Of a stretch of 39,008 nt of DNA, positions 2,010 through 33,610 are shown in pieces. The DNA is from Dehalococcoidales bacterium (lineage in GTDB: Bacteria > Chloroflexota > Dehalococcoidia > Dehalococcoidales > Fen-1064). The notes beneath the pieces are model-generated. The model was not told the origin of the DNA and searched no databases. It saw only the letters and a list, made by a program, of their open reading frames with translations. The stretch is taken from assembly GCA_028713395.1 (NCBI GenBank), contig JAQTOJ010000001.1, forward strand, positions 1 through 39,008, written 5' to 3'. Made by a program: the position numbers and the translations under genes. Positions within the stretch are counted from its first letter, which is position 1. Every line of letters starts with the position of its first letter.

Positions 2010-2515
2010 GGCCGCTCGATGTAAGAAAGTGTTACCGATCCGTATTTTTTAGTTAACGCATTGTACCCAACGTATGGCAACTCGCCTATCACAATAAAAC
2101 CCAATCGTGAAATATACCGAACGGCATGTTTATACTCACTTGGAGTGACGCCGGTAAGAATATCAAGCAAGTGTTTTCCGTATTTATTTTTTATTGAAAA
2201 CCAGCAATCAATGGCACGCCTACCAAGAGATTGAGAATATCTCCCCCAAAATTCCCTAAATATACAAAAATGTGGTGAGGCATGGTTATCGTATAAGGCA
2301 TTAACCCAAGCAACACCAGCTAACCTTCGATCCACAAAGCCAAATAAGGCAAAATTATTCTTCTCCTTAATTAATTGCCTAAAATCTTCCTCTGTCTTTA
2401 TAGTTCCATCATAAAAGACAATATGATATAGATTGTCTTTAATAATTGTTTTAAATGTTTCTTCTATTACTTCGTCAGAAATAGCATTTTCTGAATACGG
2501 CAAAATCTCTATCAT
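2000..2515 (-). CDS. GNAT-like acyltransferase, paralogue A (paralogue B at 23375-23935)
   Basis: The segment AWVN..NHA..HF..F.E.WGR...LG..AI..WF...GITPSEYK..R.I..GF is shared with ORF 23375-23935. The WGR..x..G..A pattern resembles GNAT motif A. Confidence 0.45.
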   Translation of the reverse strand: MIEILPYSENAISDEVIEETFKTIIKDNLYHIVFYDGTIKTEEDFRQLIKEKNNFALFGFVDRRLAGVAWVNALYDNHASPHFCIFREFWGRYSQSLGRRAIDCWFSIKNKYGKHLLDILTGVTPSEYKHAVRYISRLGFIVIGELPYVGYNALTKKYGSVTLSYIERPCE

Positions 2516-2523
2516 TTCGCCTC

Positions 2524-2551
2524 TTGCAAAATACTACATTTGGTGTATGGT
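2524..2551 (+). promoter_or_regulatory. sigma70-like promoter candidate for the plus-strand accessory (moron) pair
   Basis: TTGCAA (2524-2529), a 16-nt spacer, then TATGGT (2546-2551), in the divergent intergenic region upstream of 2683. Confidence 0.3.
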
Positions 2552-2682
2552 TAATGTATGTCGATAAAACTGTTTAAATGCTTACGATGTGCCTACGTAT
2601 GGGCTAGCCGAAAAACTAACCCAATTACATGCGCCAATCCAAAGTGCCGATCTACAGTATGGGCAAAACCAAAGAAATCAAA

Positions 2683-2949
2683 ATGAGATATTTATTATTA
2701 TTCCTTATGTTATCTTTCAATGCTCATGCTGATTGTCAATGGCGTTGGGATTGCACATCTGGAAATTGCGAACAAATACCAGTCTGCCAGTCTTTCTTAG
2801 ACTTCGTACCGACCGCACCACTACAACTTCCACCAAAAGTTAAACCAGCTAGGATAGTAAACAATCACAATAATATTTGGACTATGCAATGTGCTCAACG
2901 TAAATTCTGCAATTACAAAGAATGTACTTTAGAAAACATATGCAACTAA
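2683..2949 (+). CDS. small secreted cysteine-rich protein
   Basis: The internal ATG at 2683 gives MRYLLLFLMLSFNAHA, a signal-peptide-like N-terminus, followed by 8 Cys in ~70 aa. Confidence 0.5.
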   Translation: MRYLLLFLMLSFNAHADCQWRWDCTSGNCEQIPVCQSFLDFVPTAPLQLPPKVKPARIVNNHNNIWTMQCAQRKFCNYKECTLENICN

Positions 2950-3242
2950 CTAAAAACAATGACTTTGCTGAATTTTTAGTCGGTATAGCCAGCATTATTA
3001 TTATGGCTAGTGTCGCTACAGCAATTCTGAGTGCGGTTTTCCAAATTTATGTATTTTTATACAAAGGCGTATGGATTGGCCTAACTGTAAAAGATGCACT
3101 GACATTTCTTCATGTATTAAATAATGACTACGAGACAACTGTTTATTTAATAAAAGAACTGCTTAATTCATCGGCAATTTTTGGGTCATTGCTGATCGGA
3201 ACAATGGCAATCGGTATTGCAGATTTATTTAATAAAAATTAA
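2922..3242 (+). CDS. small membrane protein (about 3 predicted hydrophobic helices)
   Basis: Hydrophobic stretches FLVGIASIIIMASVATAILSAVF, and AIFGSLLIGTMAIGIA. The start could instead be ATG 2940. Confidence 0.45.
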   Translation: MYFRKHMQLTKNNDFAEFLVGIASIIIMASVATAILSAVFQIYVFLYKGVWIGLTVKDALTFLHVLNNDYETTVYLIKELLNSSAIFGSLLIGTMAIGIADLFNKN

Positions 3243-3317
3243 GGGCGAGCGAGACCGCAATTGATGTAACTATTTAGCATATTTTCAGGTAATTGCAAGA
3301 TGTTTTGTAAAAGATCG

Positions 3318-3875
3318 TCAAGACATCCTTTTCTTCAAAGCTCCAGCCAGCAAATCCTCATACAAACTAATCGTAATCTGTGTTATTTCACGATATAGCT
3401 TAGCCCAACTTAGGCTGTATGACTGCTTAGAAATCTCTAGGAGCCGAGCACGATCATTATCACGCCATTTTTTATCCCCATAACCATCACATGCGCCACA
3501 AACTATTCTAGGGGCATTATCAGGCAATATTTCCCCTACCCCCCAGCATACTGTACACACATCATTATGCGTTGCCTCGATCAATGCCATCTGGCACAGA
3601 TTTAATATCCAATCTGGTCTTGGTATTTTTTTCTTCGCGATGGCCGGTAAATCCAAAAATACTTTCCGACGCATCAAATATGTTAAGTCTTCTGAGAATT
3701 CATGTTGCTCACAATACTTAACTCTCGCATAAAGAACGACTGCTTCATTTTTTATGATACCAAGGATATGAGCAATGTCCTGTGCTGTGTATTTCGGTTT
3801 TCCTCCTGGCGCCAACGCAAAGTGCTGCACTTTAGCAGTCAATTTTCCTAGCAATTCCCGTGAATCCTTATGCAA
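3318..3875 (-). CDS. lambda-Q-like late antiterminator
   Basis: CTVCWGVGE...CGACDGYGDKKW...W..LY follows the CxxCxGxG...CxxCxGxG zinc-finger and tail pattern of lambda Q. It sits at the end of a Nin-like region. Confidence 0.55.
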   Translation of the reverse strand: MHKDSRELLGKLTAKVQHFALAPGGKPKYTAQDIAHILGIIKNEAVVLYARVKYCEQHEFSEDLTYLMRRKVFLDLPAIAKKKIPRPDWILNLCQMALIEATHNDVCTVCWGVGEILPDNAPRIVCGACDGYGDKKWRDNDRARLLEISKQSYSLSWAKLYREITQITISLYEDLLAGALKKRMS

Positions 3876-4098
3876 TGGTTTTCTCCTTTATGGAGCGCTC
3901 AATATATTTCACTCTAGACATTATCTTATCTATTTGAATATAGTTAGGAAATGTTTCGCTTACTTGTTTCCTTAAACTTTTAGGTGTTTGCAATAACTTC
4001 CACACATAATACCTGAATTGCTTGCTATACCTCTTACGCATCGCATAGGATTGTTCTGGCCCTAGTTTATATTCGTACCATTCATTCACTTTTAACAA
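3868..4098 (-). CDS. hypothetical protein (76 aa)
   Basis: ORF overlapping both neighbours by a few codons, as in a coupled operon. Confidence 0.4.
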   Translation of the reverse strand: MLKVNEWYEYKLGPEQSYAMRKRYSKQFRYYVWKLLQTPKSLRKQVSETFPNYIQIDKIMSRVKYIERSIKEKTIA

Positions 4099-4450
4099 AT
4101 CTCGTCGGATAGAGTAATTTTTCTAACATATCGTACACACCACCTTTTTTAATCATCTCAGGTGTGGCGCGGAGCACAAACCAACCAAACATAATGGCAT
4201 TATTATATTTATCTAAATCCACTTCGTAACCTTTCCCTCTCGTGTGCCTTCCATTAGTCCAGATTCCACCCTCTTGTTCTAATGCTATTTTCTTTTCCGG
4301 CCATGCATAATCAAAACGCCATTTACGTGTAGGATGAAATTTATATTCTTTCTCCACCCCTGGAAATAACTTTTTAAGTACGGCGTCGTTTAGCATTAGA
4401 AATCTTGATGTTTTTAAGTGCGCTCGTTCTCTTCTCGTAACATGAATCAC
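4082..4450 (-). CDS. PD-(D/E)XK (Vsr/DUF559-like) nuclease candidate
   Basis: WRFDYAWPEKKIALEQEGGIW..GRH......D..KYN.A...GW.VLR matches the D...E-x-E/K core of restriction-endonuclease-like folds. The start is uncertain (GTG 4450 or ATG 4396). Confidence 0.45.
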   Translation of the reverse strand: MIHVTRRERAHLKTSRFLMLNDAVLKKLFPGVEKEYKFHPTRKWRFDYAWPEKKIALEQEGGIWTNGRHTRGKGYEVDLDKYNNAIMFGWFVLRATPEMIKKGGVYDMLEKLLYPTRFVKSE

Positions 4451-4540
4451 ACAAATAACGTTTTATACCAATGCTATTAATAATATATTTAGCAGCAAAC
4501 TGCCCGCACTTGCCCTTTGTTGAGAGATTTTGACAGACTG

Positions 4541-4858
4541 TCATTCTGACTTTATCAATCCTTTTTTATAAAGCCGTAACCATGTTTTTTTCATGGCGGC
4601 ATTGAAGTTAATACTTTTTGCTTCACGTGTTAAATGCTTTCCGTAATCGTATTCGTAGTGATGTGTATTACACAAGAAAGCGATAAATAGATCATGTGAT
4701 TTCTTGCCGATGCCTCGACCGGCATTTTGCTCGTTACAATGGGCTGCTACAATCGTTCTATCATCGGCGCCGCAACCTGGCCATGTACAGACTTCACCCT
4801 CAGCGGCTGCTAACCACTTCGGCATTAAAATTCTGGATTGCTTAAAGTTTTCTAGCAT
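4541..4858 (-). CDS. YbcO/DUF1364-like nuclease candidate
   Basis: The pattern C..PGC......VAAH......G.G.K..D.....LC..HH..D resembles E. coli prophage YbcO. It lies in the Nin region next to ninB. Confidence 0.5.
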   Translation of the reverse strand: MLENFKQSRILMPKWLAAAEGEVCTWPGCGADDRTIVAAHCNEQNAGRGIGKKSHDLFIAFLCNTHHYEYDYGKHLTREAKSINFNAAMKKTWLRLYKKGLIKSE

Positions 4859-5253
4859 TTCTCATAGCGATCATCAACGAAACGTACAGAATGGTCAACG
4901 GCCCAGGCTTCTATTTGCTGGCAATAATCAGAAAATTCTATGGTATTTAATATTGTAGTTGTTTTAGCGATAAACTCTATCTCATCATCAATAACGATTG
5001 TGTCCTTGCCAATGAATTTGGCTTTAAAATATTCATGCCAAGTTTCTGGAGAATACTGCTTTCCTTCTTCGTCTTTAATCTGTTCCGATATGTCGGAAAG
5101 AATGGCCCACATCCTGGAATTCTGTTCTGTAGTGCGATTTTTCTTGTATTCTTTTATCGTTATTTGCCAGCGTCTTTCTAGAGGTAGTTTTCTTATTGCC
5201 TCTACACAATAATTGGCACTAACAGAATCGTGGACAACAAAAGAATGTTTCAC
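4852..5253 (-). CDS. ninB: NinB-like recombination protein
   Basis: NRTTEQNSRMWAILSDISEQI matches the lambda NinB signature R(S/T)xxQNxxxWAxLxDxSxQ. Similar size (133 aa). Confidence 0.65.
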   Translation of the reverse strand: MKHSFVVHDSVSANYCVEAIRKLPLERRWQITIKEYKKNRTTEQNSRMWAILSDISEQIKDEEGKQYSPETWHEYFKAKFIGKDTIVIDDEIEFIAKTTTILNTIEFSDYCQQIEAWAVDHSVRFVDDRYEKC

Positions 5254-5525
5254 TTTTTACGCTTCCTAAGCCAATCGTAGGTAAATAGTCCAGCAATCAG
5301 CACCACATAAGCACCTGCTAATAGAACACCGATAGCGCCGAGAGTTTGGGCTAGTTCTTTCACTGTTTCAATTCTACAGACATACCATGTACCCCTATAG
5401 CCACCCTGTCCATTGCGTTCGTCTAGCCTAACGGAAAGTCGGTTATTTGGTGTTTTAACCACTCCCAACCCTGCTCGATAAGCACTGTACCGCAACCTAC
5501 CAGCGTCATGCCCACGGCAAAACAT
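5250..5525 (-). CDS. small protein with C-terminal transmembrane helix
   Basis: LGAIGVLLAGAYVVLIAGLF followed by a basic tail. The N-terminal extent is uncertain. Confidence 0.35.
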   Translation of the reverse strand: MFCRGHDAGRLRYSAYRAGLGVVKTPNNRLSVRLDERNGQGGYRGTWYVCRIETVKELAQTLGAIGVLLAGAYVVLIAGLFTYDWLRKRKK

Positions 5526-5550
5526 CCAAATAACGCCATACCCTTCAGAA

Positions 5551-5895
5551 CTACCATACTTTCCCCCGTCGGTACCACTGCTCTTTTAACAGGAAGACCT
5601 TCAACGGCTGTTTGGAGTAATCCGTGCACTCCAAGGTTTGAGCTTCTATCACCGTAGCCTTACCATTCGCTACTAATTCCGCTATCGCCAAGCGCTCTCG
5701 TTTTGCTACTCGTTTCCAGCCATCGAATCCGGTCGAATAACACACGGTTTGGTCTTCGTAGATCACGTTCGATTTTTCGATCGTTATTTCTTTTTTATTC
5801 ATTTCCCAAGGCACCATTGCAAAACCAATAGCGATGAGCAAAATAGAGCCTAGATAGACCAATACGCTGGATTTCATTTCCACAACCGTGGGCAT
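5551..5895 (-). CDS. membrane-anchored protein (N-terminal TM)
   Basis: VLVYLGSILLIAIGFAMV near the N-terminus. Confidence 0.4.
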   Translation of the reverse strand: MPTVVEMKSSVLVYLGSILLIAIGFAMVPWEMNKKEITIEKSNVIYEDQTVCYSTGFDGWKRVAKRERLAIAELVANGKATVIEAQTLECTDYSKQPLKVFLLKEQWYRRGKVW

Positions 5896-29391: not shown

Positions 29392-29928
29392 TTAAATTTT
29401 CTTAAATATAAAAACTTGTTCATGTATGAAATTACGCATGTGGCTCGCGCAGAATTTCAACAACCAAGGACACCATGTAATCATCCATGTATATTTTTCA
29501 TAAGGGACTTGATTATAAGAAACGGGCTCTAATGGCACGGAATCTTTATTATCAATAGCCCATGCGCTTGTACCGTGTTGAGCACCTTTAATTCCATGAA
29601 ATGAGTTTTGACCAAACACATGGTGATGGTCACGATAGGTTAATGCTGTAGAACTTGATTCGTCTGGAACCCTAATTTCTAAAATACCACCCGGTTTAAG
29701 AATACGTGCGCATTCTGTAAAAGATGACCACCAATCCGGTATGTGCTCAAGTATGTGGCTCATATAAATCTCATCTATGGAATTATCATCCCACGGATAG
29801 GGAAATTTATTTAAATCACATACTAAATCAGGAACGCAAGACTCATAAGCATCAACATTGACCCAACCTATTATTTTTTTTAGACCACATCCTAAATTTA
29901 GTTTAGTTTTTTTAACATTTTCAGCCAT
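29392..29928 (-). CDS. class I SAM-dependent methyltransferase
   Basis: LNLGCG (motif I), a DAY acidic loop, and ILKPGGILEI (motif IV-like). Confidence 0.75.
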   Translation of the reverse strand: MAENVKKTKLNLGCGLKKIIGWVNVDAYESCVPDLVCDLNKFPYPWDDNSIDEIYMSHILEHIPDWWSSFTECARILKPGGILEIRVPDESSSTALTYRDHHHVFGQNSFHGIKGAQHGTSAWAIDNKDSVPLEPVSYNQVPYEKYTWMITWCPWLLKFCASHMRNFIHEQVFIFKKI

Positions 29929-30950
29929 AAATGTCCTATCTCATCCCAGCTATTAATTTTTGTGGCGGCAGCATTTTTAATCATTTTACGATGAAGTTTT
30001 TCATCTTCAAGAAGATGAACAGAATGGCGTATAACATCAAGATGATAAGCCATATAATCAACTGGCATCCATCTTGTTAACACACCATTTTTATTATTAT
30101 TTATCCATTCATTGGAACTACCTATATTACCTGTCGTGACGATAGGCGTTCCAGACGCAAGACTTTGCAGAATTATGTTAGAACATATTTCCGGGTAATC
30201 TGTAGGCAATACCATCAATCCCGATTTACCTATTTCTTCCGCCAATTGTTTCTGCGGAATGGGATCACATAACTGTACATCGGACTCTTCTACTTTCGTA
30301 TAGACTTCGGTAAAACCATCTTTATCTGAATCTCTATCTTCGACTTCATTAGGATGAAGTTTTTTAAGATTAGAGAATGCCTTCATGTAAACCGGCCTTT
30401 TTACTCTTGTCTTGATGCAATCAAAAATAAAAGGTAACCGTTTCAGCCCCCTATTAGGGGCCGAGGCAAAAATCAAATAATTTAAATCCTTTTCTCTAGG
30501 ATAGAATATCTCTTTATCAACACCGTTCGGTATTAAAAAAGACCTGCCTATTTCCTTATAGAAATATCGCCAAATCCGCTCTGCATAATTCGACATAAAT
30601 ACCGTTGCCGAAAATGCTTTGATTGTCTTTGGTTCTGGTATAAATCCAGAATGCGGTAAATCATGCGTCCACAATATTCTGTGACGAGATTTTATATCGG
30701 AATGACCGCTACCCACCCCGCGATTACAAATTAGAAAATCATAATCCTCATTTGCATCGCCGCACCAGACAACCCCGCTTCTAGTAGTGCCTGATTTCTT
30801 AATGTCGCTATTCACAACGACATGGTGCCCACACGAAGCCAAATAATCTGAAATTTTAAATAAGCTCGTTACCATTCCACCACGAGCCTTTGTTTCTAAA
30901 TCATCAACCGTTTCTAACTTGGTCGATTTATCCAGAAAACAGATTTTCAT
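29898..30950 (-). CDS. glycosyltransferase (GT-B, family-4-like)
   Basis: MKICFLD...GGM...L...L...GHHVVV at the N-terminus. The C-terminal E..C.NIILQSLASGTPIVTT......E resembles the GT4 EX7E region. ATGA-coupled start at 30950. Confidence 0.65.
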   Translation of the reverse strand: MKICFLDKSTKLETVDDLETKARGGMVTSLFKISDYLASCGHHVVVNSDIKKSGTTRSGVVWCGDANEDYDFLICNRGVGSGHSDIKSRHRILWTHDLPHSGFIPEPKTIKAFSATVFMSNYAERIWRYFYKEIGRSFLIPNGVDKEIFYPREKDLNYLIFASAPNRGLKRLPFIFDCIKTRVKRPVYMKAFSNLKKLHPNEVEDRDSDKDGFTEVYTKVEESDVQLCDPIPQKQLAEEIGKSGLMVLPTDYPEICSNIILQSLASGTPIVTTGNIGSSNEWINNNKNGVLTRWMPVDYMAYHLDVIRHSVHLLEDEKLHRKMIKNAAATKINSWDEIGHLWLKMLKKLN

Positions 30951-31162
30951 CTTTCCACTGCCATTTTTGCTTCCAACCCGCATTTACGACAGGCAAGATG
31001 CTGTCTGCTTACTATTGATCTATCATCAATGGTATATTTTTGAAGAACGTTATTATCCTGCCCTTTCTTTTTGGTAAACCAAGATTCATCGTCCGCACTG
31101 AATAATGTTTCTACTTTAACGAACTGCTCACATTGGCATTTCCTGCAAACCCATTGAGACAC
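30947..31162 (-). CDS. zinc-ribbon protein (71 aa)
   Basis: GTG 31162 lies 4 nt after AGGAGG in the CCTTGATAGGAGG motif. CRKCQC...CRKCG. Confidence 0.4.
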   Translation of the reverse strand: MSQWVCRKCQCEQFVKVETLFSADDESWFTKKKGQDNNVLQKYTIDDRSIVSRQHLACRKCGLEAKMAVER

Positions 31163-31217: not shown

Positions 31218-31649
31218 TCACAGAGCGCGCAAGAACCCTTTGGCAGTCGTCGCAAATTGGCTTGAAGACGAGGCGGTAATAGCCTCGCACAAGAAACCAA
31301 ACGCTTTCGACGTACCAAGAACGGTAGCCGGGGTAAGACCCCAATGCGCACCACCTGCCACCACGGTTAAGTTATCGCCCGCTACAGATGAGCCCGTTGA
31401 GGCGTAAATACGAACGCTTGCACGGTATCCGTAGACCTGCACTAAACCATACGCATTGTTGGCGATATCACTATCCGCAACACCGGCAAATGCCTGAAGG
31501 TCTGTAGCAGAGGCTTGGGTAACACGTACACCGTCAACACTAGCGCCAACATCGAATACTAGCGCATAGCCTGCCGTGGCAGTGGAACCCGATACATTTT
31601 GTACAACGATAAAGGCTGTTTCTGCTGTAGTACGTCCAACTCTTTTGAC
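31218..31649 (-). CDS. start-less ORF encoding a beta-rich decoration/cement-like domain; probable 3' exon
   Basis: The frame is open from 31685 to TGA 31218, with no ATG/GTG/TTG before GTG 31442. The sequence ..AGYALVFDVGASVDGVRV....AFAGVADSDIANNAYGLVQVYGY..VRIY....VAGDNLTVVAGG resembles DUF2190-type head decoration proteins. Confidence 0.5.
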   Translation of the reverse strand, partial: VKRVGRTTAETAFIVVQNVSGSTATAGYALVFDVGASVDGVRVTQASATDLQAFAGVADSDIANNAYGLVQVYGYRASVRIYASTGSSVAGDNLTVVAGGAHWGLTPATVLGTSKAFGFLCEAITASSSSQFATTAKGFLRAL

Positions 31650-32508
31650 CTGTCCGATTTCTCTTTCATGGACATGGACTATATCTTACCTTCCTATCAA
31701 GGTGCTTCGTATGAAGATAGTAATTTGTATTTCATGCAATCTGGCACATGAGAAATAAATGGCTCGAATATCTTATCAAGTTTTTCTATCTCATTGACAC
31801 CGAATCGGAGACGCCAATGTTCTCCATGCCTGTTTAACTTTGCCGTCAGATTCCATCTGTCGTGAAAATATTTCTGTAACGATAGATGTTCAATATAATT
31901 ATACCGATCTGTGCAAAATATCGCCCCTGGATCATTTCCGCTTTCTTTCCAGTACCTTACCCCATCGTCAAGATACCAAAATAACAAACCTAAATCATCC
32001 AATCGCTTGAGCATGTGAACATCAAATGTCTTTCTATTCGCATGATATACGCGCTGTCGAAGACCTGTATAAAATGGATGGCTTTTCGTAAAAATAACAA
32101 TTACCGGATATAACTTGTCGCTTTCCTTACTTGCCTTTGATTCACCTCTCCATACAGAAACAGACGTTAACTGCTCTAGGATTTCTTTTTTCCATAAAGC
32201 ATAGTCTTCATATTTTCCTGAATGGCTACATTGCAAGTGGGCATTCTTTCTATCTTTCGACAATCCAGCGTCACCCATTAACATACCGATAACAGCACCT
32301 TTTAACTCTAACCTGTTCTTCATAGTCTCTACTCCTGGCTTTTCGCCTTGGATCGGGATTGCTCTTTTCGAGTCGTCCCCCGAGTTCAGAAGTCTTGTGA
32401 TACCCGTGGCCTTACTGGCCCAATATCATTTTACTTAACTCCTTTGTTAAAGCGCCCCTACCACGCAATGTTTTCACTTACAGGCTTTCACCCAGTTTAT
32501 TTGAAGTT
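31649..32508 (-). mobile_element. group I intron (boundaries approximate) containing a LAGLIDADG ORF
   Basis: The minus-sense S element AAGATATAGTCC (31687-31676) is a 12/12 match to the consensus. The R element is GTAGAGACTATG (32332-32321). P7 is GACTAT/ATAGTC (6 bp) and P3 is GCCTGT (32485-32480) / ACAGGT (32316-32311). P4 is ATTGCGTGG with CCACG (32409-32405). The P8 hairpin is ACCTT-GATAGG-AAGGT (31703-31688), and P9 is TGTCC/GGACA (31674-31651) followed by GG. Confidence 0.65.
31697..32323 (-). CDS. LAGLIDADG homing endonuclease (two-motif, monomeric type)
   Basis: LKGAVIGMLMGDAGL and LGLLFWYLDDGVRY are the two LAGLIDADG motifs. The ATG lies inside P7 and the TGA lies in the P8 loop of the intron. 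Confidence 0.75.
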   Translation of the reverse strand: MKNRLELKGAVIGMLMGDAGLSKDRKNAHLQCSHSGKYEDYALWKKEILEQLTSVSVWRGESKASKESDKLYPVIVIFTKSHPFYTGLRQRVYHANRKTFDVHMLKRLDDLGLLFWYLDDGVRYWKESGNDPGAIFCTDRYNYIEHLSLQKYFHDRWNLTAKLNRHGEHWRLRFGVNEIEKLDKIFEPFISHVPDCMKYKLLSSYEAP

Positions 32509-33610
32509 ACGCCACAATCGTGCGCGACACAGCATACACCACGCCATGCTTACGCAGATTGCTTACTGCCGCATTACCCATAAAGAGGATTTTTGCGGTT
32601 TTTACCGTCTGATTTTCCGGCTCCACGAACGGAGTAGTAATAATATCCGTCTCAGAGTCGATAACCAGATTGTAAAAATTGGTGTTGATAAAAAATGCAC
32701 TACCGGCTGTCAAGGCGAGCGTGCCATTATCAATATCAGGAACTTGTTCGTCCCAAATACAGGTAGCACCGCGCATCTTAATAGTATCAAACCCCATTTC
32801 TGCCATTTTCGTGTCCATGTAACGTACGCTGACATCCAGCGCATTGTTATATGTCTCGAATGAGATTTGATCGAAAACAACAAGATTAGGAGAACCGCCA
32901 GAACCTTTCGAGCAAGAATTATACATACGGTACAATGCTGCCTTAAAGCCTTGATAGGTCGATACACTGATAGCAAAAGCATTGCCCGTATCAACAGACG
33001 CGCTATCTAACACAGCGGTTTGCGGCCTCCACCATGAATCTGTTACCGCTGAAATATTACCAACATTACCACCGGCAGTCGGATTCAGTTGGTTATTCTT
33101 ACGCATGAAATAACCTAATGGGTTTAAATCCTTACCATTATTACCAGGAACGAAGGTGGCGCCTGAAACCGTACCGGCGACTAATTGCCGGTTTAGTTCT
33201 TCACGCATACCCATCTCAGCCTGCTTCAGCTTTGCCTTCAACAAATCGAGAAGACGTCCTTCACCTGAGTTTTGACGCTCTTCCTTACGGGTAATACCGA
33301 TAGTACCTGCAATTTCTTTCCATTCGTAGAATGCCGTAGTAATGCCATCCTGCAAAGTCGTATCAATTACTTCTTCACCCTGATATGACTTAATCGTACT
33401 GTTCGTGCCATACATCAATGGCATGGCGATACGTTCACCGCCATTTTGCTTTTTTACTGCATCGGAATTTCTAAGAAATGCTAGATAAGCTGAATCCTTA
33501 AAAATATTGTCGACTAGAGTGTCACGAAAAGCCATCATCGTGGTAGATAACAGACTATCGTAATAAACTGTATTTGTACTAGGTGCGGCTGTACTTCCAA
33601 TAGTAGCCAT
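32507..33610 (-). CDS. major capsid protein (367 aa as annotated to the UAA)
   Basis: Assigned by position after the scaffold gene, size, strong SD (TGGAGAAG), and general resemblance to HK97-fold podovirus coat proteins. Confidence 0.75.
   Translation of the reverse strand: MATIGSTAAPSTNTVYYDSLLSTTMMAFRDTLVDNIFKDSAYLAFLRNSDAVKKQNGGERIAMPLMYGTNSTIKSYQGEEVIDTTLQDGITTAFYEWKEIAGTIGITRKEERQNSGEGRLLDLLKAKLKQAEMGMREELNRQLVAGTVSGATFVPGNNGKDLNPLGYFMRKNNQLNPTAGGNVGNISAVTDSWWRPQTAVLDSASVDTGNAFAISVSTYQGFKAALYRMYNSCSKGSGGSPNLVVFDQISFETYNNALDVSVRYMDTKMAEMGFDTIKMRGATCIWDEQVPDIDNGTLALTAGSAFFINTNFYNLVIDSETDIITTPFVEPENQTVKTAKILFMGNAAVSNLRKHGVVYAVSRTIVA

Follow-up and report, generated by a model that had tools for sequence, protein, structure and literature searches.

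A LAGLIDADG-bearing group I intron predicted to interrupt codon 3 of a putative phage head-decoration gene

What does the endonuclease-bearing insertion behind the major capsid gene of contig JAQTOJ010000001.1 interrupt, and where does it begin? We analyzed positions 1 to 39,008 of this contig (assembly GCA_028713395.1), hereafter the window; all features at the locus lie on the minus strand, and coordinates are those of the whole 39-kb window. Downstream of the capsid gene, a frame that is open from 31685 to 31218 contains no ATG, GTG or TTG for ∼80 codons, and an open reading frame (ORF) for a LAGLIDADG endonuclease lies between the two. An earlier interpretation, made from the letters alone and called here the sequence-only reading, had explained this arrangement by a group I intron at the 3' end of the capsid gene. 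Our analysis indicates that a 774-nucleotide (nt) mobile group I intron (32422..31649) very probably interrupts codon 3 of a separate gene, which encodes a putative head-decoration or cement protein of 145 amino acids (aa) and is called the cement gene below. The boundaries of the intron, its RNA structure, the protein families involved and its sporadic distribution could be shown in silico.

The interrupted gene and its predicted splice junctions

The major capsid protein gene (32507..33610) is complete and intron-free. It encodes 367 aa and ends at TAA 32509-32507, as is read in the ORF list and as had been stated before. Its product matches the phrog_9953 major head protein profile with an E-value of 5.8e-38 over positions 7-326 of 329, has no extension, and is 25-27% identical to annotated major capsid proteins such as Mx8. 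The 77 nt that follow (32430..32506) form an intergenic region that belongs to the 5' exon, and their layout matches that of 13 intron-less relatives. In these 13 IMG/VR loci the capsid stop is separated from the cement gene by 65-120 nt, no insertion is present in any of them, and the spacer carries a hairpin with a GATAGGG loop, a ribosome-binding site (RBS) and then ATG. The window presents the same elements in the same order after its capsid stop (hairpin GCGT-GGTAGGG-GCGC, AAAGGAG, ATG ATA T) and diverges thereafter. The last of these elements is the coding part of exon 1 (32423..32429), which consists of the start codon (ATG, 32429-32427), an Ile codon and the first base of a Phe codon; the AAAGGAG at 32445-32439 is the cement gene's own RBS.

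Homologues of the downstream frame are numerous (n = 457 at E ≤ 1e-3), and the 120 listed of these 457 are free-standing proteins of 142-156 aa, nearly all of them 142-146 aa long. Close intron-less homologues measure 143-145 aa and open with M-[LI]-F-K-R-V; the fifteen that were aligned begin with M-[L/I]-F/L-K/Q-R, and their resemblance to the window frame sets in exactly at KRVGRTT. When 32422..31649 is deleted in silico, ATGATAT is joined to TCAAAAG and a 145-aa product is obtained, MIFKRVGRTTAETAF... (MIFKRVGRTT...), whose length and N-terminus are those of the closest intron-less homologues (92-94% aa identity). The predicted ligated-exon junction is ...AAAAUGAUAU joined to UCAAAAGAGUU.... 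Exon 2 (31218..31648) opens with TC AAA AGA GTT, runs to the stop codon and makes up the 145 aa together with exon 1; the intron begins with U32422 and ends with the omega-G at 31649. The proposals that the start-less frame is a 3' exon and that 31649 is the omega-G are thus borne out by a spliced ORF that matches the homologues. The 5' splice site has to be moved. Because the N-termini of the homologues, the layout of the intron-less loci and the restored 145-aa ORF agree, we place it after U32423, ∼85 nt 3' of its earlier placement at 32508 or 32503, so that the 5' exon ends with the first 7 nt of a separate gene that has its own RBS and not with the capsid gene.

The same arrangement recurs elsewhere. 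All eight homologues of the endonuclease (59-73% identity) lie inside the same intron at the same codon, giving nine distinct loci when the window is included; the eight come from other metagenomes. At each of the nine, ATG-NNN-T is followed by an insertion of 746-774 nt, the last base of which is a G directly before T[CT]-AAR/CAR. Excision restores an ORF beginning M[LI]F[KQ]R in 9/9 loci, with a length of 142-162 aa in the eight contigs that are long enough. Of the eight homologue contigs, five hold all or part of a capsid gene, the LAGLIDADG ORF and a small-gene call that is truncated at its 5' end. The remaining three are short contigs cut at one end, one of which stops 44 codons into the spliced ORF.

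Comparative RNA structure and competing explanations

The nine introns were aligned with MAFFT together with 15-nt flanks of exon, and the structure read from this alignment was then tested for pairing against two controls, one in which the 3' partners were slid by 1-3 columns and one of 500 shuffles scored by five measures. The test covered 9 helices, 47 pairs and 417 cells, of which 94.7% hold standard pairs compared with 33-45% for the slid partners, and compensatory (two-sided) changes occur in 23 of the 47 pairs. The helices run in the order P1, P1a, P3, P4, P5, P6, P7 (with a bulged A), P8 and P9, and P2 is absent. This is the canonical P3-P9 order with a P3/P7 pseudoknot, in which the 3' strand of P3 follows the 5' strand of P7 and precedes P8.

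The sequence-only reading had reported no convincing P1. In the comparative structure, the last six bases of exon 1 (UGAUAU, 32428-32423) form the 5' strand of P1 and pair with the internal guide sequence GUAUCA (32403-32398). The splice-site pair is U.G in 8/9 introns; the ninth, which MAFFT aligned out of register, pairs by eye as GAUCU/GGAUC. P1 covaries with codon 2 of the cement gene at alignment pairs 12/38 and 14/36 (GAUAU/GUAUC, GCUGU/GCAGC, GUUGU/GCAAC, GAUCU/GGAUC and GCUAU/GUAGC), and the codon 2 variation that the guide sequence follows is synonymous or conservative. This agreement between guide sequence and codon 2 fixes the 5' splice site without recourse to protein homology. The bases just 5' of the guide sequence (G32405, G32404) pair with the first bases of exon 2 (U31648, C31647) to form P10; at its alignment pair 33/800, six introns have G-C and the other three A-U, without exception. 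The loop of P1 contains the hairpin P1a (GGCC-AGUAA-GGCC, 32408..32420), which is 97% paired with swaps between GC and CG. An in-frame UAA inside P1a ends read-through from the cement ATG after 5 codons, and the corresponding unspliced read-through peptides measure 4-13 aa across all nine introns.

The core helices are similarly conserved in pairing. P3 joins (A)CUUC (32389..32393) to GAAG(C) (31708-31704), with compensatory changes in 4/5 pairs. P4 (UCGGGG, 32383-32378, with UCCCGA, 32358-32353) is 98% paired with compensatory changes and encloses P5 (CUC, 32372-32370, with GAG, 32364-32362, loop GAAAA), which is 100% paired, also with compensatory changes. P6 (32334..32351; CC-AA-GGC/GCC-A-GG, loop GAAAA) is 100% paired as well, and its variants among the introns include GGC/GCC, CCC/GGG, GCC/GGC and GUC/GAC. 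The R element that the sequence-only reading had located at 32332-32321 is present there (GTAGAGACTATG), and its core forms the 5' strand of P7, G(A)GACUAU (32322..32329), which pairs with AUAGUCC (31682-31676). P7 is 100% paired in all nine introns; its pair 116/762 is G-C in six and A-U in three, and by analogy with other group I introns the G-C pair of P7 would be the guanosine-binding site. The S element (AAGAUAUAGUCC, 31676..31687) comprises J8/7 (31687-31683) and the 3' strand of P7 (31682-31676). The exact S consensus 12-mer, AAGATATAGTCC, previously noted at 31687-31676, occurs only there in the 39 kb, and none is expected from 100 shuffles. Directly abutting the S element is the P8 hairpin (ACCUU-GAUAGG-AAGGU, 31703-31688), whose sequence differs in every intron and which is always formed. 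P9 (UGUCC, 31674-31670, with GGACA, 31655-31651) is followed by G31650 and the omega-G, and all six of its pairs show compensatory changes. The earlier proposals for P7 (GACTAT/ATAGTC), P8 (ACCTT-GATAGG-AAGGT) and P9 (TGTCC/GGACA, then GG) are therefore upheld by covariation in the nine introns.

The endonuclease ORF (31697..32323, 208 aa) extends from P7 through a closing stem and the 3' strand of P3 (P3') into the loop of P8. As had been described, it encodes a two-motif LAGLIDADG protein that starts in P7 (ATG, 32323-32321) and stops in the P8 loop; it matches PF03161 LAGLIDADG_2 (E 5.5e-28; 98.5 bits, cut-off 25; residues 10-182) and also phrog_11023, and the two motifs read VIGMLMGDAGL and LLFWYLDDGV in the translation. 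Its Shine-Dalgarno sequence, GGAG, lies in the 3' strand of P6 and J6/7, and the frame of the relatives extends to P9. The loop that holds the ORF is closed by a two-part stem in a P7.1-like position between P7 and P3' (5' strands at 32304..32321), in which GAAGA (32321-32317) pairs with UCUUC (31717-31713) and GAGUU (32308-32304) with AAUUA (31725-21), the latter forming 4/5 pairs in the window. This stem is 93% paired compared with 31-58% for slid partners, and 16 of its cells are changed on both sides. Its covariation falls at synonymous codon positions, which points to selection on the RNA.

Three other pairings were considered and rejected. A 7-bp helix ACUUCUG/CAGGAGU (32393-87 with 32337-31) is strong in the window alone, clashes with the covarying P6 and is not conserved. 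A strong-looking 8-bp helix, AAGGUGCU/AGCACCUU (32301-294 with 31706-699), is also not conserved and clashes with P8. A conventional P3' directly after P7 would have only 4 bp, in inconsistent registers.

Several points weigh against the assignment of this RNA to the group I introns. None of the 500 shuffles reaches any of the five measures, a result that overstates independence because the nine introns are kin; the slid-partner control is free of that weakness. P8 partly loses its register in the MAFFT alignment, where its columns are only 72% paired; P3 in the window has only 4 bp, and P10 has only 2 bp. Only one helix was found between P7 and P3', where subgroup IA2 has both P7.1 and P7.2, so that the intron is tentatively called IA2-like; a column-pair scan of the nine-intron alignment found no second hairpin between P7 and P3'. 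Finally, Rfam, including RF00028 (the group I intron model that the sequence-only reading had suggested as a check), gave no match at the gathering score in the whole window. With the limit relaxed to E ≤ 10, 31400-32700 and the 5' core without the ORF (32290-32440) still had no match. Six loci with distant endonuclease relatives likewise gave no Rfam intron match. The failure is probably due to the insertion of ∼590 nt between P7 and P3', which splits the P3/P7 pseudoknot region, together with the missing P2. The suggested check thus failed to report an intron that is still supported comparatively, and judged by the alignment the negative is a blind spot of the covariance model that is outweighed by the comparative evidence.

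A related issue is whether this RNA would splice unaided. The short P3 and P10 of the window and its small core without P2 could suggest that splicing needs the LAGLIDADG protein as a maturase, or a host chaperone, and a maturase-like bacterial LAGLIDADG intron protein is known from the Thermotoga 23S rRNA intron (PMC3984707). On the other side, the loops of P5, P6 and P9 are of the GNRA type, which suggests ordinary tertiary contacts within the RNA, and we regard such a dependence as unlikely, if still worth keeping in mind.

It is very improbable that no splicing takes place and that a free-standing LAGLIDADG gene has inactivated the cement gene, or that an internal start is used. Besides the absence of an Rfam intron, such an explanation would account for the 5'-truncated products of 104-131 aa that gene callers give in related contigs. 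It does not account for ten RNA helices flanking the ORF that are kept by compensatory changes in nine loci, synonymous ORF sites included, or for exons that are intact and in phase in 9/9 loci; moreover, the window frame has no start codon over its first ∼80 codons, and the R and S consensus elements are present.

The model of the sequence-only reading, in which splicing at 32508 or 32503 fuses the decoration domain to the capsid protein and splicing efficiency sets the ratio of the two forms in the manner of T7 10A/10B, is hardly credible in light of these results. Joining GCGU to UCAAAAG does give an in-frame ...RTIVA-FKRVGRTT, and the complementary strings GCCTGT/ACAGGT and GCGTGG/CCACG that suggested P3 and P4 do exist. 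However, the 5' strands of both proposed helices (ATTGCGTGG with CCACG in the case of P4) lie in the intergenic region upstream of the 5' splice site, ATTGCGTGG is half of the conserved intergenic hairpin, and the true P3 and P4 are found elsewhere and covary. The ∼85 nt after the capsid stop correspond to the intergenic layout of the 13 intron-less relatives, ending in RBS, ATG, ATA and T, and in nine introns the partner of the guide sequence, in pairing and in covariation, is codon 2 of the small gene and not the end of the capsid gene. The homologues of the downstream protein are 142-160 aa long and stand free, each with its own Met, which is the independent start that had been named as evidence against a fusion, and the capsid protein spans its PHROG profile without extension. 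With the comparatively defined junctions, the capsid TAA and the 77-nt spacer are retained in the spliced mRNA. Because the 5' exon holds the entire capsid ORF, which has its normal end there, no fusion protein is predicted.

A sequencing or assembly error near the A-run at 31643-31646, with an extra base joining the ATG at 31675 (or that at 31669, both just upstream in another frame) to the long frame as MSMKEK..., is of negligible probability, since no homologue has an MSMKEK-type N-terminus and all show M[LI]F[KQ]R directly before the onset of homology, the same interrupted arrangement is found in eight independent assemblies, and the region of 31675 is the covarying P9 hairpin.

Mobility and proposed mechanism

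Having placed the intron in codon 3 of the cement gene, we compared the histories of intron and exons. The closest exon relatives of the window (92-94% aa identity) lack the intron. At locus L030, the cement protein is only 36% identical to that of the window, whereas the endonuclease is 62% identical and the intron core is near-identical. The intron is also AT-richer than exon 2 (GC content of 40.6% versus 52.2%). Because of these three properties, the intron is probably mobile. Searches of GenBank phages with the region and the intron core (megablast, blastn) and with the downstream ORF (tblastn) gave no match, and degenerate core patterns had no match in IMG/VR, JGI metagenome contigs or GTDB genomes.

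Established group I biology suggests how the element would operate. The precursor would fold and an exogenous G would attack after U32423; the omega-G at 31649 would then dock in the P7 site, and ligation of AUGAUAU to UCAAAAG would produce the cement mRNA. The capsid ORF would be left untouched and would keep its own UAA. From unspliced RNA, the cement start codon would give only a 5-aa peptide; an early in-frame stop that keeps ribosomes off the ribozyme core is common in phage introns. The endonuclease would cut intron-less alleles at ATG-NTN-TT^Y-AAR, allowing the intron to spread by homing; in the intron-less locus L009, the candidate target sequence is ATAATATGATCTTTAAAAGAGTCGG. The patchy occurrence of the intron and its presence in divergent host alleles agree with such cleavage, though indirectly. 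RNA folding and translation of the endonuclease would be mutually exclusive, as its signals and frame overlap P6, P7, P3' and P8. An exclusion of folding by translation has been described in a review for ORFs that reach into core sequences (PMC3984707). Catalysis, homing and regulation are all inferred here by analogy.

The intron lies only 7 nt into the cement gene, P1 holds the U and G of the start codon, and the RBS falls within a ribosome footprint of the 5' splice site. Because P1 includes start-codon bases and the RBS is nearby, initiation on the precursor and formation of P1 should exclude each other. Read-through also stops within 4-13 codons in all nine introns. It nevertheless seems doubtful that the intron is more than a neutral parasite and acts as a splicing-gated switch or timer that sets the amount of cement protein versus capsid protein made from the same late transcript. 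The conserved GAUAGGG-loop hairpin of the intergenic region could be part of such splicing-gated control of the cement gene.

The intergenic region of the window contains two hairpins, GGGU-GAAA-GCCU (32491-32480) and the conserved GCGU-GGUAGGG-GCGC (32466-32452), the latter with a G(A/G)UAGGG loop. In the relatives (L001-L017 and L028-L038) the second hairpin lies between the capsid stop and the RBS; its stem is variable and covarying, its loop is conserved as G(A/G)UAGGG, it is usually followed by GUCAGUSAC-AAAA-GGAG, and two copies are present in some loci. The stem has at least 4 bp in 14/19 loci, compared with a mean of 2.6 (maximum 6) for shuffled flanks. Because it lacks a U-tract, the hairpin is not a classic terminator; in its place between the two genes it may serve in processing or regulation.

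Other endonuclease genes occur in related loci. In L020 (∼2300-3300) and also in L021, a LAGLIDADG ORF that is 28% identical to that of the window lies inside a sibling group I intron, with an R element (GTAACGACTAATG) that contains the start of the ORF, a P8 of the form CCCC..GGGG and an S element (GAAGATATAGTC). The L020 intron is laid out like that of the window, and Rfam does not detect it either. This intron splits a structural-module gene of ∼310 aa, the 3' ORF of which covers only 121-307 of 312 of phrog_16565. In L031-L033 (600-1358, 3850-4599), a NUMOD3-containing ORF precedes the capsid gene and a GIY-YIG ORF follows the cement gene. This group of phages seems to have a hot spot for homing endonucleases in its head-gene module.

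The existing gene calls for the cement gene are affected at many of these loci. Those in L029-L038 are the 5'-truncated calls of 104-131 aa, and that in L028 (1804-2274; P0071, MMVRDSPWGIKAKAPHV...) has a spurious N-terminal extension that comes from translating the intron's 3' end. The cement-gene entries of intron-bearing contigs in public protein sets are mis-annotations.

Phage context and comparison with known systems

The protein encoded by the interrupted gene belongs to a family of 1,894 members, none of them meaningfully named. The window protein itself falls below every Pfam and PHROG threshold, but PF09956 Phage_cement_2 (formerly DUF2190) is matched by 10/61 family members (best E 3e-4) and phrog_122 head decoration by 3/30. 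A profile of the family gave only chance-level matches to PDB sequences. An AlphaFold (AF2) model built from a diverse alignment reached a predicted local distance difference test score (pLDDT) of 78 and a predicted template modeling score (pTM) of 0.77; a first model from a shallow alignment (pLDDT 44) was discarded. The best Foldseek matches of this model (probability 1.0) are all to phage or archaeal-virus capsids (the base of the phi29 head fibre gp8.5, HFTV1, FCWL1, Pam3, T1, E217, TW1, BB1 and lambda gpD), among them named decoration, stabilizing and head-fibre proteins. Template modeling (TM) scores are ∼0.53-0.60 for full-length matches and ∼0.35-0.38 over the shorter lambda gpD alignments. 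The cement gene lies directly 3' of the capsid gene in all loci. At the level of the predicted fold, the model supports a host protein of the decoration or cement type, and the decoration-like character that had been suggested earlier agrees with these matches and with PF09956 in the relatives.

Just 3' of the cement gene, the window carries a glycosyltransferase gene (29898-30983; phrog_2170, Glycos_transf_1 in relatives). A glycosyltransferase gene is found in the same position in L031, L032 and L034, with one other ORF between it and the cement gene, and in L030 this position (3675-5645) is taken by radical SAM/SPASM and methyltransferase genes. The C-terminus of the cement protein is rich in Ser and Thr (TASSSSQFATTAK), and together with the neighboring glycosyltransferase gene this could reflect virion glycosylation.

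The contig was deposited in a Dehalococcoidales metagenome-assembled genome, and its assignable genes (terminase, capsid, cement protein) are phage genes. Related contigs (L039-L047) were binned to Gottesmanbacteria, Beta- and Gammaproteobacteria, Pirellulales, Vicinamibacterales and Smithella. Because the genes are those of a phage and the related contigs are spread over six phyla or classes that are not related to each other, the host assignment is unreliable, and the contig probably represents a phage genome that was mis-binned. No terminal repeat or redundancy was found in the contig.

These findings correct an attractive model of capsid-decoration fusion by alternative splicing and leave the understanding of how group I introns work unchanged. 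The exact junctions make it possible to annotate the cement gene as 145 aa, which gene callers now truncate here and in at least eight related contigs. The loci compared here also document a small group I intron lineage that bears LAGLIDADG ORFs in uncultured phages, with nine members in this position and a sibling in a different structural gene. Because Rfam misses this lineage, such introns are probably under-counted in viromes. The endonuclease has a short, well-defined predicted target around a start codon, which is of possible interest for homing endonuclease mining. The LAGLIDADG enzyme, the placement of its ORF in a single P7-P3' stem, the insertion in codon 3 and the invisibility to Rfam are unusual but minor features.

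The putative cement protein resembles known decoration and cement proteins (lambda gpD, the base of phi29 gp8.5, the TW1 capsid stabilizing protein, the capsid-associated chains of T1, Pam3 and E217, and PF09956) in its predicted fold and in the position of its gene after the capsid gene. It differs from them in scoring below the Pfam and PHROG thresholds and in its moderate TM scores. In T7 gene 10A/10B, programmed frameshifting makes an extended minor capsid protein. The likeness to T7 is confined to the gene neighborhood, a capsid gene followed by an extra domain; at this locus no frame is shared once the intron is removed, the spacer, RBS and ATG stay in place along with the stop codon, and no extended capsid protein is predicted.

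The endonuclease shares with the PF03161 enzymes of organelle and bacterial introns a single chain of ∼200 aa with two LAGLIDADG motifs and a location in a group I intron. It differs in that sequence search finds no relative with a solved structure and in that relatives in phage records are rare, with 15 of 50,697 GenBank phage records containing one, all at 24-28% identity. Phage group I introns most often encode GIY-YIG, HNH, PD-(D/E)xK and EDxHD enzymes (review, PMC3984707).

Phage IA2 introns without P2, with helices between P7 and P3 and with ORFs that overlap P7 have been described (PMC3428280, PMC2248736). Like those of T7-like phages (PhiI, W31 and the DNA polymerase intron of cyanophage Pf-WMP3; PMC3428280) and those in T4 td, nrdB and nrdD, the window intron lies in a protein-coding phage gene and has a short P10. 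As in Pf-WMP3 it has no P2; an extra helix lies between P7 and P3', the ORF overlaps the core including P7, and an in-frame stop follows soon after the 5' splice site. The IA2 introns, however, carry HNH or GIY-YIG enzymes and both P7.1 and P7.2, whereas the present intron encodes a LAGLIDADG enzyme and holds the whole ORF on one two-part stem.

Group I introns in phage structural genes are known from the capsid genes of Tuc2009 and of the Cluster J mycobacteriophage LittleE; the LittleE intron carries a LAGLIDADG ORF, and related introns are found in tail genes of both BAKA and Optimus (PMC3706429). The window intron shows no detectable sequence similarity to any GenBank phage by megablast or blastn. 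It is like those of LittleE and Tuc2009 in being a group I-type intron in a virion structural gene, with an exon U and an intron-terminal G, and like that of LittleE in having a LAGLIDADG-type endonuclease and occurring in only some relatives. Whereas LittleE and Tuc2009 have the intron in the capsid gene itself, the predicted host gene here is the decoration or cement gene beside it, and the endonuclease, which in LittleE is encoded on the opposite strand, lies on the same strand as the intron and overlaps the core helices.

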